Positions 7,665 to 45,440 are shown, numbered from the stretch's first letter. The stretch: 46,140 nt of DNA from a virus (IMGVR_UViG_2693429508_000014:1-46140); one strand, 5' to 3'. Notes: generated by a model not told the origin, from the sequence alone. Made by a program: numbers and translations.

Positions 7665-7784
7665 GTGATCATCATGCACACACAAAAAAACCGCTTGCCA
7701 TGTCGCAATCAGTCAGGTTACATTTCCGCTGCACCTCATAAAACGGGTGCCGGGATTGAGACCCCGCTGACAAACATAGCGCAC

Positions 7785-7806
7785 AACCGCGCCAGCGGTT
7801 TTTTTG
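7785..7806 (+). terminator. Putative rho-independent terminator of the early operon
   Basis: AACCGC-GCCA-GCGGTT hairpin followed by a T7 run. Confidence 0.4.
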
Positions 7807-7984
7807 TGCGTACTGTATCGCCACATCTTTTTCGCACACGAATTATGGTGGGGCGTACGGGGCCGACTTCGGTCGGGCCGGGTTCTATGTTTGCCGGTAG
7901 TCTCAACCCTGTACGTCTCGCCACCCCGAGTTTGAGACCTCTGGATGGTGAGTTTTCAAAACTTACACACATAGAGGCCACATC

Positions 7985-40842: not shown

Positions 40843-41371
40843 TGGTCAGATAATCCCGCTAAAACGCTTAAGTGTCAGCGTGAAGCTGACCATCAAAGAC
40901 AAAGACGCTTCCGGAAAATCCTCATCAACAGCGACTTCAGAACAGGGTGTAAAAGCCAAGGAGCTGCAGATTTCCGGACTGATTCCGTTCACCCAGCCGG
41001 AAGCACTCACACGCTTATTTCGTCTGGCTGAAGCCAGAGCCGCTAACGGTGCACAACAGGTTTACCGCATCGCCAACATGGATGCCAAAGCGGTCAATAT
41101 GAAGCAAGGGATTTTTTCCGGTGCCGTGGGCGCAACTCCTGAAACAGGCCTGATGGCATGGAAAGTTGACTTCACTCTGAAAGAAAAACTCAGCAGTGCC
41201 GAAAAGGCGACAGGACGCGGCCCGGCTGGCAGCCAGAGTGCTGAACAGCACGCACAGGCCGTCAAATCAGGTGGCAAAGGCGAAAAAAACGAAGAGCATG
41301 GCTGGTTCTGGAAAATGTCAGACAAACTCAATAACTGGATAGGCCCGGCAGGCAATGAAACCAATTCGTGA
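40805..41371 (+). CDS. Tail protein, gpU-like
   Basis: 188 aa. WKVDFTLKEKLSSAEKATG resembles gpU ...KIDFTLSLTRVDESLAALYG as recalled; upstream of the gpD-like gene. Confidence 0.4.
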   Translation: MSQNTTTPLLALNGQIIPLKRLSVSVKLTIKDKDASGKSSSTATSEQGVKAKELQISGLIPFTQPEALTRLFRLAEARAANGAQQVYRIANMDAKAVNMKQGIFSGAVGATPETGLMAWKVDFTLKEKLSSAEKATGRGPAGSQSAEQHAQAVKSGGKGEKNEEHGWFWKMSDKLNNWIGPAGNETNS

Positions 41372-43043
41372 TCTCTGCATTAACGGCAGGCGTTATCCTG
41401 TCGTGGAAGAAAACATCATGTTGCGTCTCAACGGCGCGGGAACCGGCTTTATCACCATTAACGCCGCCGACAATACTCCCCCGCTACGCGGCAAACCCGT
41501 AGAGCTGTCCATCGGTTACAATGATCAGCCTGTAAAGTGGTTTTCGGGATATGTGGAAAGTGACAGTTGTACAGGCAGAGGGCTGCACAAGCTGATGGTG
41601 CGCGAAGCTGCTGCTATTCTGCAATACCCGCTCAACATCTCCATGCAGCATCCGACGCTGAAACAGGTCGCAGGACACATTGAAGGCAATACAGGTTTAC
41701 GCATACAACTCCCGAAGGCAGGCTACACCACCACTCCGGTCCCTCATCTGACCCACAATGGCAACGGTTATCAGCTGATGGCCATGCTTGGCCGCATATT
41801 CAGTATCCCGGATTACGTCTGGTATCCGTCGGTTGACGGCATCATCTACGCCGGAAGCTTTGCTGACTGCCGTTTTGCAAAACGCCCTGCCAGATTGCCG
41901 GTCGATATCACCAGAGGTGATCACGGAGCAAATGGCTGGACAATACAGACGATTCCCATGATGCGCCCCGGCGTGGTCATGAACGATCACCGTATAAATC
42001 AGGTACAGCTACAGGGCGACAGCATGATCATTAGCTGGAGTGATGGCCGTCAGTCGCCCGTACAACGCCAGATCGAAACCCTTTACCCCGAGATAGGCAA
42101 CAAAACCCACCTTCCACGCATGGGACGCGTGATCTCACCAACTGAAAACACAACCCAGGGGGATTTGCATGATGAATTTCGCCCACGCTACGCCGTCAAT
42201 GTGCAGTTGCTCGACGAGAACGGCACCCCCGATAAGAACACACCGGTATATAACGCCGTCCCCGTTCCTGTGCCAATGGCCGGCAATGAATCCGGGATAT
42301 TCCAGTACCCGCCCCCAGGAACCATAGTTACACTGGCCCACGTTGACGGCAGGCCGGATAAACCCATCATCACCGGCACTCACGCCAGCGGCCAGAGTCT
42401 GCCGGGAATAAAGCCCGGCGAACAACTACAACAGCAACGCGCAGAGGTATTCCAGCGTGTGCATACAGATGGCACATGGCAGCGTGAAACCGATCAGGTT
42501 ATTCGTGAGAAATCCACCGACCGCATCATCCAGAACACAACGGAAACGCGCACCAGTACCACTCGTAATATTACCGTAAAGGCCAACAACACCATAACGG
42601 TGCTCGGCACTCATAAGCTGATGAGCGGCCACATACAGCACATCGCAGACGGTGACTATGCCGTAGCCGCCACGAAGAAACTGATACAGCACGCCGACAG
42701 CGCTGAACTCGACGTTACTCACCAGTGGCAAACCAGCACAGAAAGCACCACCCACAATGTGGCGAAAACGCTGGAAGAAAAGATTGGCCGGATTAAAAAA
42801 TCCGTCGCTGGCCAGATGCAACAGATCATCGCCCCGCAGGTCTGGTTTGGCAGCAATACCATCAACACACTTAACCTCATGCTGGATCTTTGCGACACCG
42901 TTCAGCAACTGGCGCAGCTCACCGCACAACACACTCATACCAACAACGGGTCGTCACAGCCCACCAACAGCGGCAGCATAGACACGGTGGCATCAATGGC
43001 AGGCAACCTGAAAGCGAAGTACAGTACCGTGATTAAGCAGTAA
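41355..43043 (+). CDS. Tail / baseplate hub protein, gpD-like (gp27/VgrG-like N-terminus)
   Basis: 562 aa. N-terminal GKPVELSIGYNDQPVKWFSGYVESDSCTGRGLHKLMVREAAAIL follows the hub-family pattern; last tail gene before the junction region. Confidence 0.45.
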   Translation: MKPIRDLCINGRRYPVVEENIMLRLNGAGTGFITINAADNTPPLRGKPVELSIGYNDQPVKWFSGYVESDSCTGRGLHKLMVREAAAILQYPLNISMQHPTLKQVAGHIEGNTGLRIQLPKAGYTTTPVPHLTHNGNGYQLMAMLGRIFSIPDYVWYPSVDGIIYAGSFADCRFAKRPARLPVDITRGDHGANGWTIQTIPMMRPGVVMNDHRINQVQLQGDSMIISWSDGRQSPVQRQIETLYPEIGNKTHLPRMGRVISPTENTTQGDLHDEFRPRYAVNVQLLDENGTPDKNTPVYNAVPVPVPMAGNESGIFQYPPPGTIVTLAHVDGRPDKPIITGTHASGQSLPGIKPGEQLQQQRAEVFQRVHTDGTWQRETDQVIREKSTDRIIQNTTETRTSTTRNITVKANNTITVLGTHKLMSGHIQHIADGDYAVAATKKLIQHADSAELDVTHQWQTSTESTTHNVAKTLEEKIGRIKKSVAGQMQQIIAPQVWFGSNTINTLNLMLDLCDTVQQLAQLTAQHTHTNNGSSQPTNSGSIDTVASMAGNLKAKYSTVIKQ

Positions 43044-43987
43044 GTTTACAGATGAGAAGAGGTGCACAGGCAGCCCGGTTTACCGCTCAAGAATCATGCC
43101 ACAAAATACAGACAAATAAGCCTTTCGTGAAATTATTCATATATCAATAAATTTCATTCATCGAACCAGACGAAAGCCCGTCGCGACGGGCATTCCCCCA
43201 GAAAAACACCCCCCACCAGACGCGCTGTATCGCATTCTGCGACATGCTTTAAGCAAATAAACGCGCGAGTCCCCCTGAATTCAGCTCGTAACGCCTGAAA
43301 GCGTACACGCACGCTACGTGGATATTTCACGGCATGATGAGCCCAACACACGGCACGGGCGCAAGCCCCCCGCGCTTGCACTCTTTACGATAAAAATTTT
43401 TTGCCAAATAAATTTGTGCAAAACGACACTCCAGACCGCGCCAGCACTGGCGCTTTACAAAAAAGCCATCTGGCACAAAGTGTCAAAGATTGCCAGGCTT
43501 TGCCAGATTAACGTTAAAAAAGGATCTGACAGGAAAATTAACCATATGAAAAACAAAACCATTTTTTGTTTTCGTCATTTTAAAGGATCTGAATGCCGCC
43601 AAAGTGCCACATACAGGAACCACATAACACAATGAAATAAAAGGTAAAAATAAAACATTGGACAAGGATCGTTTTGGCGCAGCGTTACACAGTTTCACTG
43701 TGTAACTATTTTCAGGCGCAAGCAAAAACCGCTCACGAAAGCAGCGACAAAAGCGGCAAAATTTTAACTTTCGCGGAGAACCGAACGGGTGACGTGAAAC
43801 TTTACGTAGCAGAGAAGCGGGAAATCAGTAGAATAATCGCGGGTGCCTTTCGGCTGATGGTCGGAGGGAATACCCGAAGGCCGGATGTGGAAAGGCCCCG
43901 GAAAACATTTCTGTTTAACCGAGGCCCTAACATATCTACCTTAAGCAAGTGATAGGTTAGCGCCTCTCCAACAAAGGAGCAAGCGCT

Positions 43988-44128
43988 ATGTCGCAAAAAT
44001 CGCTTACGGCCATCACGTTCTGCGTGACGGCAATCCTCATCATCTGGATGCTGCACGGTTCGCTGTGTGAAATACGGATGAGCTTCTGGGGAGCGGAGTT
44101 TGCGGCGTTCTTACAGTGTAAACAGTAA
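43988..44128 (+). CDS. hok: Hok/Gef-family type I toxin (46 aa)
   Basis: Not in the ORF track (under 60 aa). Translation MSQKSLTAITFCVTAILIIWMLHGSLCEIRMSFWGAEFAAFLQCKQ has an N-terminal transmembrane helix and the family hallmark SLCEIR...AAF. AAGGAG Shine-Dalgarno 8 nt upstream. Confidence 0.75.
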   Translation: MSQKSLTAITFCVTAILIIWMLHGSLCEIRMSFWGAEFAAFLQCKQ

Positions 44129-44214
44129 GGAAACCGCGACGGGGGAGCAATCCCCCGTCAATCGGTTGCTAAGGTTGGCTGAAGTGGCACCCTATCTCAC
44201 AGACGTGAACAACA

Positions 44215-44248
44215 AACCCGCAGCGTAAGAACTGCGGGTTTTCTTTTT
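44215..44248 (+). terminator. Rho-independent terminator at the 3' end of the hok-like transcript
   Basis: CCCGCAG-(loop)-CTGCGGG hairpin followed by TTTTCTTTTT. A second GC hairpin (CGACGGGGG..CCCCCGTC) lies about 60 nt upstream, consistent with a hok mRNA 3' fold-back element. Confidence 0.5.
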
Positions 44249-44316
44249 GGAACTATCACTAGCTAGTGTACCGTTAACGGCACATAATGCTCGCACAACA
44301 AACCTGTTAAAAGAGA

Positions 44317-44598
44317 TTACTCAGCATTCTCCTGCTTCCATTGCCGGATCATTTCATCGGTAACATCACCCTCATAACATACCACGTCATACCCTCCATT
44401 ACGGCTATATGCACTGCGTCCACCACATCTACTACCATTCCTTGCATGATTATAAGGACACGCACAATTGCCTGGATAAGATTCAATGGATTCTTTAATT
44501 ATTTCTTTTTTGATCTGAGCATCAGACTTTCCTGTTGCTGCATATCCACTAAAAGATACTAAACAAAGGCAGATTGCCATTAATAAACCACATCGCAT
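44317..44598 (-). CDS. Small secreted Cys-containing protein (93 aa), AT-rich
   Basis: Signal-peptide-like N-terminus MRCGLLMAICLCLVSFSGYAATG, four Cys in the mature part, roughly 40% GC. The ORF-track start at 44712 was replaced by the internal ATG at 44598. Confidence 0.5.
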   Translation of the reverse strand: MRCGLLMAICLCLVSFSGYAATGKSDAQIKKEIIKESIESYPGNCACPYNHARNGSRCGGRSAYSRNGGYDVVCYEGDVTDEMIRQWKQENAE

Positions 44599-45137: not shown

Positions 45138-45224
45138 TGGTACCCGGAGCGGGACTTGAACCCGCACAGCGCGAACGCCGAGGGATTTTAAATCCCTTGT
45201 GTCTACCGATTCCACCATCCGGGC
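45138..45224 (-). tRNA. leuZ: tRNA-Leu (anticodon UAA)
   Basis: 87-nt type II tRNA on the minus strand; anticodon loop GATTTAAAATC; ends with encoded CCA; matches E. coli leuZ as recalled. Confidence 0.9.
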
Positions 45225-45236
45225 TCGGGAAGAAAG

Positions 45237-45310
45237 TGGAGGCGCGTTCCGGAGTCGAACCGGACTAGACGGATTTGCAATCCGCTACATAACCGCTTTG
45301 TTAACGCGCC
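45237..45310 (-). tRNA. cysT: tRNA-Cys (anticodon GCA)
   Basis: 74-nt tRNA on the minus strand; anticodon stem-loop GCGGATTGCAAATCCGT; encoded CCA. Confidence 0.9.
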
Positions 45311-45364
45311 AAATTCTTCAGGCCTTTCAGCCAGACATCCGCTTGACGCCGATGTCTTTTAAAC

Positions 45365-45440
<76 letters not shown>

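Follow-up and report, generated by a model that had tools for sequence, protein, structure and literature searches.

A prophage-borne hok/sok-type toxin-antitoxin cassette of Escherichia coli, probably complete and lacking a mok reading frame

The stretch of DNA analysed here, called the window, has a length of 46,140 nucleotides (IMGVR_UViG_2693429508_000014:1-46140). It is Escherichia coli DNA, 100% identical to strain VL40, and contains a mosaic prophage with an integrase gene (1-1056), P2-type gpA, terminase and gpO genes and a lambda-J-like tail. A gpD/Vgr-like gene is found at 41355-43043, followed by the gene considered here, a hok gene located at 43988-44128 on the plus strand. The genes for tRNA-Leu, tRNA-Cys and tRNA-Gly lie about 1 kb downstream of hok, at 45138-45440 on the minus strand, in agreement with an earlier note on this DNA which had placed a Hok toxin locus next to a tRNA cluster. 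Core chromosomal sequence does not return until about 45070, immediately 3' of leuZ, which places hok in the final kilobase of the island.

The same cassette is present between gpD/ogr and the att/int end in the P2-like phages P88 (97.6% identical) and Chuche, and likewise in Salmonella P2-like prophages which are inserted at other integration sites. The homology to P88 stops at window position 44248 (query position 419 of the match), that is, at the terminator of the hok transcript. P2-like phages, among them P88 and Chuche, carry the cassette as cargo. At an identity of at least roughly 85% it was found in 1539 of 5426 complete E. coli genomes (28%), in which PGAP already calls the copies "Hok/Gef family protein". 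Stx2a phages carry copies that are about 82% identical. Lambdoid tail-fibre regions and some plasmids also contain copies, and in Salmonella there are tandemly duplicated ones.

The hok gene encodes a peptide of 46 amino acids, MSQKSLTAITFCVTAILIIWMLHGSLCEIRMSFWGAEFAAFLQCKQ, with the RefSeq entry WP_000078916.1 ("Hok/Gef family protein", NCBI PGAP). The earlier note had recognised this open reading frame by a SLCEIR motif and an N-terminal hydrophobic helix, and the profile searches agree with it. The peptide matches Pfam PF01848 HOK_GEF with 29.9 bits (gathering score 22, E = 4e-7) over residues 7-44 of 46 and PHROG 251 ("MokW-like host killing") from end to end with E = 1.3e-22, and residues 5-22 form a hydrophobic segment with a mean Kyte-Doolittle value of 2.26. 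The match to the Hok family is far beyond chance. The nearest K-12 paralogue is HokA, with 43% identity. An alignment to HokA-E had been proposed as a check, and in it the SLCE motif, the E..AAFL.C tail and both cysteines are all intact. Residues L26, C27, E28 and E37 align with their counterparts in K-12 HokA, HokC and HokE, and in the published Hok logo the equivalent conserved positions are L30, C31, E32 and E41 (bioRxiv 10.1101/2025.08.07.668861). The peptide is HokA-like and not HokA, since its score of 34 bits with the HokA equivalog NCBIfam NF007290 is well under the cutoff of 89. These comparisons strongly support its assignment to the Hok/Gef family as a predicted single-pass membrane peptide closest to HokA. 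A Shine-Dalgarno (SD) sequence, AAGGAG, is located at 43974-43979, 8 nt 5' of the ATG, as the earlier note had reported.

For the comparative analysis an alignment of 16 loci from Escherichia, Salmonella, Klebsiella and phages was used; a profile search for related loci gave 6, of which 3 are probably contaminant contigs, and the diversity was taken from contigs encoding the peptide. The hok reading frame is intact in all 16 loci, and the SD is kept as AAGGAG or AAGGAGT in nearly all of them. All 31 full-length protein clusters are likewise intact, each with 46 amino acids except one with 47, and C27, C44 and the AE.AA.LQCK pattern are invariant across them. Against the divergent Salmonella and Klebsiella copies (dS 0.6-1.2) the dN/dS ratio is 0.12-0.35, which indicates purifying selection. 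The intact 46-aa clusters together with this ratio therefore rule out a decayed fragment, and the suggestion that the locus might be partly degenerate is not supported, the long-range helices of the transcript described below also showing compensatory changes.

The peptide has been studied before. A preprint of 2025-26 (bioRxiv 10.1101/2025.08.07.668861) describes 1264 Hok peptides in 61 clusters, with homologues in almost 80% of Enterobacteriaceae genomes and an enrichment of hok in prophages; mok and Sok were explicitly left out of that analysis. The identical peptide appears there as 72_1621, in the high-abundance, HokA-like cluster 72, and was cloned as LRP137. On arabinose induction 42 of 45 homologues were reportedly toxic, the exceptions being 19_179, 60_1482 and 69_1540 and so not 72_1621, in constructs with a foreign SD and a heterologous promoter that did not include the native leader (bioRxiv 10.1101/2025.08.07.668861). 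The toxicity check proposed in the earlier note comes out in favour of a toxin in this published work. Since the toxin was known already, together with its family, its occurrence in prophages and its toxicity, the locus is an ordinary, catalogued Hok cassette. What is added here is the exact placement of the RNA elements, the covariation support for the long-range folds and the lack of mok in the subfamily.

The hok transcript is predicted to be about 406 nt long and to extend from 43841 to about 44246 on the plus strand, its 5' end being set by position 1 of the Rfam model RF01794 and its 3' end by the terminator. A putative -10 box, TAGAAT, is found at 43829-43834, 6 nt upstream of the predicted 5' end, and reads TAGAAT or TAGATT in 14 of the 16 loci, directly 5' of GCGGGTGCC; its role as the hok promoter is suggested by this conservation upstream of the mRNA start. 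The -35 box is weak in the window, and the E. coli/P88-type promoter reads TTGCCG-17-TAGATT. The earlier note had confined the locus to 43880-44248, and while the features that it named do lie at the places given, the functional unit is larger and begins with the -10 box at 43829. The leader (43841-43998) aligns with RF01794 over its full length (model positions 1-157) with E = 5e-8. The score of 44.8 bits does not reach the gathering score of 59, and the K-12 leaders of hokC, hokB and hokE score 118, 110 and 84 bits. Although RF01794 is named "sok", on K-12 loci it matches the hok-sense strand, its position 1 coinciding with the presumed 5' end of the mRNA and its positions 155-157 with the hok AUG.

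The predicted full-length mRNA (43841-44246) has a minimum free energy of -182.2 kcal/mol (z = -8.3 against shuffles). When the window fold is mapped onto the 16 loci, 89.4% of the cells are paired versus about 40% in slid controls, a percentage inflated by the derivation of the fold from the window sequence; the count of 31 pairs with double changes, which is not inflated in this manner, was reached by none of 500 shuffles. Compensatory changes in the 16 loci support the long-range helices, the hairpin that follows the stop codon and the terminator alike, and the hok mRNA architecture suggested in the earlier note is confirmed. In the predicted fold the 5'-end element (43841-43855), equivalent to tac, pairs with a fold-back inhibition (fbi) element, GGCUGAAGUGGCACCC, at 44177-44192. 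Of the 15 pairs in this helix 4 are compensatory, and pairing across the 16 loci amounts to 89.9%; the GGCACCC of the fbi element is conserved in 15 of them. An alternative tac-stem between the 43841-43855 region and 43893-43899 is paired in 15 to 16 of the 16 loci, without variation; its energetic cost is +4.1 kcal/mol for the truncated RNA and +11.0 for the full-length one. A second long-range helix joins 43938-43953, the region of the 5' end and promoter of the predicted Sok RNA, to a downstream complementary box at 44161-44175, with 14 pairs of which 5 are compensatory.

The hok SD itself is predicted to be sequestered in a local hairpin (43958-43988), in which CUCC at 43966-43969 pairs with GGAG at 43976-43979 and the A of the AUG is paired as well. 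The hairpin has 11 pairs and is 91.5% paired across the 16 loci, with one-sided changes only, and the probability of GGAG being unpaired is about 0 in both the full-length and the truncated ensembles. The folds strongly support a full-length hok mRNA that would be translationally inert, because the SD is buried in this local hairpin (the 5' end also being clamped to 44177-44192). Further downstream the transcript contains a GC-rich hairpin after the stop codon (44138-44159; 9 pairs, 5 compensatory, 98.6% paired) and a Rho-independent terminator at 44214-44248, detected by a terminator scan, with a 10-bp stem (44214-44241; 4 compensatory pairs) followed by a T-run; the earlier note had described both. 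In R1 the last stem-loop of the truncated hok mRNA shields it against 3' exonucleases (PMC9841398), and by analogy the hairpin after the stop codon is probably a 3' stabiliser of the processed mRNA. The "open" leader fold of the Rfam consensus was also compared with the alignment and was not adopted; with 74% of cells paired and 5 compensatory pairs against 5.1 in shuffles, it is permitted and not proven.

The earlier note had held that an antisense Sok RNA could not be placed from sequence alone. Homology to SokB, SokC and SokE nevertheless allows a putative Sok-like antitoxin RNA of about 60 nt to be placed on the minus strand, from 43946 to 43887. The annotated SokC 5' end falls on Rfam model position 106, which is window position 43946, and the body aligns with the three K-12 RNAs in having a common GGCCUCGG...CCGGGGCC hairpin and a GGGGCYUU tail. 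From 5' to 3' the RNA would consist of a single-stranded tail, a GGGCCUCGG...CCGGGGCC hairpin and a terminal UUU, with a predicted fold of -22.7 kcal/mol (z = -3.4). Counted from the hok ATG, its predicted 5' and 3' ends are 42 and about 101 nt upstream, the K-12 ranges being 44-49 and 103-107.

A promoter for this RNA is proposed at 43982 to 43954 on the minus strand, with a -35 box TTGCTC (43982-43977), a 17-nt spacer, a -10 box TAACCT (43959-43954) and, 7 nt further, a G start at 43946. It aligns column for column with the annotated K-12 promoters and 5' ends (sokB TTGCCG..TAAGAT, sokE TTGCCT..TACCAT and sokC TTGACC..CACTCT, all with a G at +1), and every one of the 16 loci has TA(A/T)CCT as its -10 box. 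A generic sigma-70 scan of 43650-44350 returned no promoters, and both the hok and the Sok promoters were placed by homology instead; the Sok promoter was missed by the scan because its -10 box fits the consensus at only 3 of 6 positions. The alignments support a conserved, putative antisense promoter inside the leader, from which a Sok-like RNA fully complementary to the leader would be transcribed. The ends of the hok mRNA, the Sok RNA with its promoter, the fbi element and the downstream box are all absent from the current genome annotation, and their placement may be of value to it.

No overlapping mok frame with a start codon had been found in the earlier note, and the present scan confirms this. 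In the window leader no frame opened by ATG, GTG or TTG upstream of the hok ATG reads through it, all frames considered, and by the same scan a read-through frame is absent from 11 of the 16 subfamily loci. In the remaining 5 loci such frames begin at -145, -103, -38 and, twice, at -28, and these positions are inconsistent. As a positive control the scan recovers mokB (ATG at -58 behind CCGAGG) and the open frames in hokC and hokE. What appears to be a relic of the mok translation start is located at 43921-43934 (+), where the former mok SD, GAGG (43921-43924), is followed by ATA (43932-43934) at the position of the mokB ATG (hokB CCGAGGCCAACGAATG versus window CCGAGGCCCTAACATA), and the stops TGA TAG are found 3' of it at 43950-43955. 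The GAGG is invariant in all 16 loci, and none of them has a start codon at the mokB-ATG position. A conserved mok or leader reading frame is rejected by the all-frame scan of the 16 loci with its K-12 controls; the ATA is not conserved either.

The lack of a mok frame implies that mok-coupled ribosomes cannot activate hok translation here. In R1 the translation of mok up to the hok SD is mandatory for Hok synthesis (PMC9841398), and the mok-less subfamily therefore gates hok differently or is silent. A limited literature search for mok-less hok loci, or for a standby mechanism in hok, returned nothing specific, which is weak negative evidence. Regulation without mok would be a small, so far undescribed detail of the subfamily, and that a widely distributed and selectively maintained group of Hok loci lacks mok is a modest scientific point.

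The reading that we favour, with a probability of roughly 85%, is that of a complete, phage-carried type I toxin-antitoxin cassette of the hok/sok type. In such a cassette the weak promoter with its -10 box at 43829 would give the hok mRNA of about 406 nt, the 5' end of which would be clamped to 44177-44192. If the cassette behaves like R1 hok/sok and hokW/sokW, slow trimming from the 3' end would remove this clamp and allow the RNA to refold, Sok would pair with the refolded leader, and the duplex would be cut by RNase III. Following the same two systems, decay of Sok, for example after prophage loss or induction, would let Hok be made and the inner membrane be depolarised.

How hok could be opened to ribosomes in this cassette is a more speculative matter. 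One candidate substitute for mok is a relay in the RNA itself: refolding may release the invariant GAGGC at 43921-43925, the former mok SD, which may then pair with GCCUC at 43962-43966 and pull the anti-SD off the hok SD, and Sok, by covering GAGGC, would block the relay. In constrained folds the cost of the open structure is +11.7 kcal/mol for the full-length RNA and falls to +4.8 once fbi is removed, and occupation of the Sok target restores SD sequestration. Against the relay, the open fold is never the minimum free energy structure and the SD hairpin is closed in all unconstrained folds; the covariation neither supports nor refutes the GAGGC:GCCUC pairing, because the pairs are invariant. 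It is accordingly only tentatively proposed that cluster 72 represents a natural mok-less variant of hok/sok in which a purely RNA-based relay or standby replaces translational coupling. The roles given to GAGGC in such a variant, namely that once released it strips the anti-SD or serves as a ribosome landing pad devoid of a start codon, and that Sok acts by covering it, are equally doubtful in our estimation. If the proposal is true, the textbook three-gene design hok/mok/sok would not be obligatory within the family. Moreover, an active cassette would offer a simple natural system for the gating of hok translation without a leader peptide.

Two other explanations of the missing mok have to be weighed against a working cassette. 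The mok-less locus could be translationally silent in its native context, and the hok reading frame and its folds would then persist as a relic, inert cargo from which Hok is never translated. Functional inertness was earlier proposed for the chromosomal K-12 hok loci. The absence of mok, the R1 requirement for its translation (PMC9841398) and the pairing of the hok SD in every unconstrained fold agree with such a relic, as does the inability of chromosomal hokA, hokB and hokC to mediate post-segregational killing, at least as represented by the work cited in a preprint (bioRxiv 10.1101/2025.08.07.668861). A relic is, however, difficult to reconcile with the purifying selection and the 16 intact reading frames across Escherichia, Salmonella and Klebsiella, with the SD kept in nearly all loci, and with the carriage of the cassette by the viable phages P88 and Chuche and by 28% of complete E. 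coli genomes. The compensatory changes that maintain the inhibitory helices also count against it, because without translation to repress there would be no reason to preserve them. A silent relic is thus considered improbable.

Even less credence is given to a cryptic leader reading frame in place of mok, in which ribosomes stopping just before the SD hairpin would open it and Sok would act by blocking the leader frame. The E. coli subgroup does have an upstream frame of 19 codons, from an ATG at 43885 to a stop at 43942-43944, with GAAGG 5 nt upstream and almost wholly under Sok. It is present in the window and in the O157, P88, Chuche, Stx2a-phage and E. albertii copies, and its end, 14 nt before the foot of the SD hairpin at 43958, would suit such a role. 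A second candidate would start on the non-canonical ATA at 43932, which stands exactly at the mokB ATG position. However, the ATG of the first candidate, at -103, is missing in the Salmonella and Klebsiella subgroup, the frames, lengths and stop positions of the upstream frames vary between loci, and non-start codons replace the ATA in 13 of the 16. Furthermore, in R1 stops in mok upstream of the hok SD abolish Hok synthesis (PMC9841398). An arrangement of this kind is considered very unlikely.

Compared with the known systems, the cassette resembles hokA/sokA in the MxQK start, the WM, SLCE and E..AAFL.CK motifs and both cysteines of the peptide, and in a leader of the type beginning with GGGUGC. 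It differs in the length of the peptide (46 amino acids versus 50 in HokA), in its lack of a mok frame, where hokA has mokA (in K-12 a pseudogene), and in being phage cargo, hokA being a fixed chromosomal locus. With R1 hok/mok/sok (PMC9841398) and with hokB/sokB and hokC/sokC of K-12 it shares the tac/fbi pairing of the ends, the downstream complementary box and the terminator after fbi; its leader also resembles RF01794, though under the gathering score, and the predicted Sok promoter and RNA have the same relative position. Unlike these three it has no mok, the mok SD GAGG being retained and followed by an ATA in place of the start and then by stops. Peptide identity to HokB and HokC is just 22-26%, and the Rfam score of 44.8 compares with 110-118 for hokB and hokC.

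Outside the family, tisB/istR-1 and zorO/orzO have no leader reading frame; their antitoxins pair far upstream of a toxin SD that is structurally sequestered, and they become active only after RNA processing. They may offer a functional analogy for control without mok, with neither sequence nor peptide homology to the locus. Their antitoxins are divergently encoded, whereas the Sok predicted here would be a fully overlapping cis-antisense RNA.

The hokW/sokW system of the Stx2 prophage Sp5 is also prophage-borne, and the PHROG family matched by the peptide is named after it. In that system repression by Sok has been shown to depend on RNase III and Hfq, and the system plays a part in phage release (Takada et al. 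2021, PMC8621323). HokW, unlike the peptide described here, is a 51-aa HokC/D-like, Gef-like peptide (MKQQKAM...) of another cluster and has a different leader, as seen from the primer sequences. Identity of the two cassettes was considered and rejected on account of the 51-aa Gef-like HokW and its leader, the PHROG family name being their only link. Stx2a phages carry a separate, about 82% identical copy of the 46-aa cassette at a position other than that of hokW/sokW.

The leaders of the E. coli subgroup of this hok subfamily carry a 19-codon upstream open reading frame (MWKGPGKHFCLTEALTYLP, plus strand), which in the window lies at 43885-43944 and is preceded, 5 nt upstream, by the sequence GAAGG. 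The predicted antisense RNA Sok covers nearly the whole of this frame. In the E. albertii copy (L010) the same ATG opens a frame of 79 codons that runs through hok. This ATG is absent from the leaders of the Salmonella/Klebsiella subgroup.

Upstream of the hok cassette, between the gpD/Vgr-like gene and hok (43044-43828), no recognisable gene was found. In O157:H7, in Chuche and in the P2-like prophages of Salmonella hok is preceded by ogr, whereas this gene is missing from the corresponding interval of the window. The homology to O157 and P88 begins only at position 43829, and the 30 nt upstream of it are instead similar to the cassette as found in Klebsiella/Salmonella. On the other side, between the hok terminator and the tRNA-Leu gene leuZ, the minus strand encodes a Cys-rich protein of 93 amino acids (44317-44598) with a signal-peptide-like N-terminus. 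The protein matches PHROG 27544 (E = 7e-58), a family of unknown function, and no Pfam family was hit. Its gene is accessory DNA: of 5426 complete E. coli genomes, only about 587 have it at full length.

The DNA from 1 to 45070 is a mosaic prophage, in which gpA, the terminase and gpO of P2 type are found together with a tip attachment protein of lambda-J type and a tape measure. A second block, with tail-fibre, baseplate and gpD-like genes, is located at 37-43 kb, and the whole may consist of two elements placed in tandem at the leuZ site.

Among the related loci, two from Salmonella (L018 and L019) have two complete cassettes of the subfamily in tandem, about 490 bp apart, at 1501-1641 and 1991-2131 in the former and at 1501-1641 and 1995-2135 in the latter; every one of these cassettes has a leader and a terminator of its own. 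Some copies are partly decayed: in the Salmonella locus L014 (~1341-1400) the promoter and the 5' GGGUGCC are gone and the 3' GGCACCC is retained, and the copy from an Stx2a phage, L005 (~2870-2936), retains the fbi element and has no terminator. Moreover, hok genes 98% identical to that of the window occur on contigs labelled as a Planococcaceae MAG (L007) and Vagococcus sp. (L008), and one of 72% identity on a contig labelled Xanthomonas pisi (L011); these three most likely represent assembly contamination and not real hosts.

Within the prophage's early region, neighbouring plus-strand matches to isrK (7731-7805, 66.7 bits) and to the C4 antisense RNA (7841-7928, 81.5 bits) were obtained with Rfam, both above the gathering score. 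The pair looks like a C4 immunity RNA module of the P1/P7 type, here found in a phage whose replication and head genes are of P2 type.
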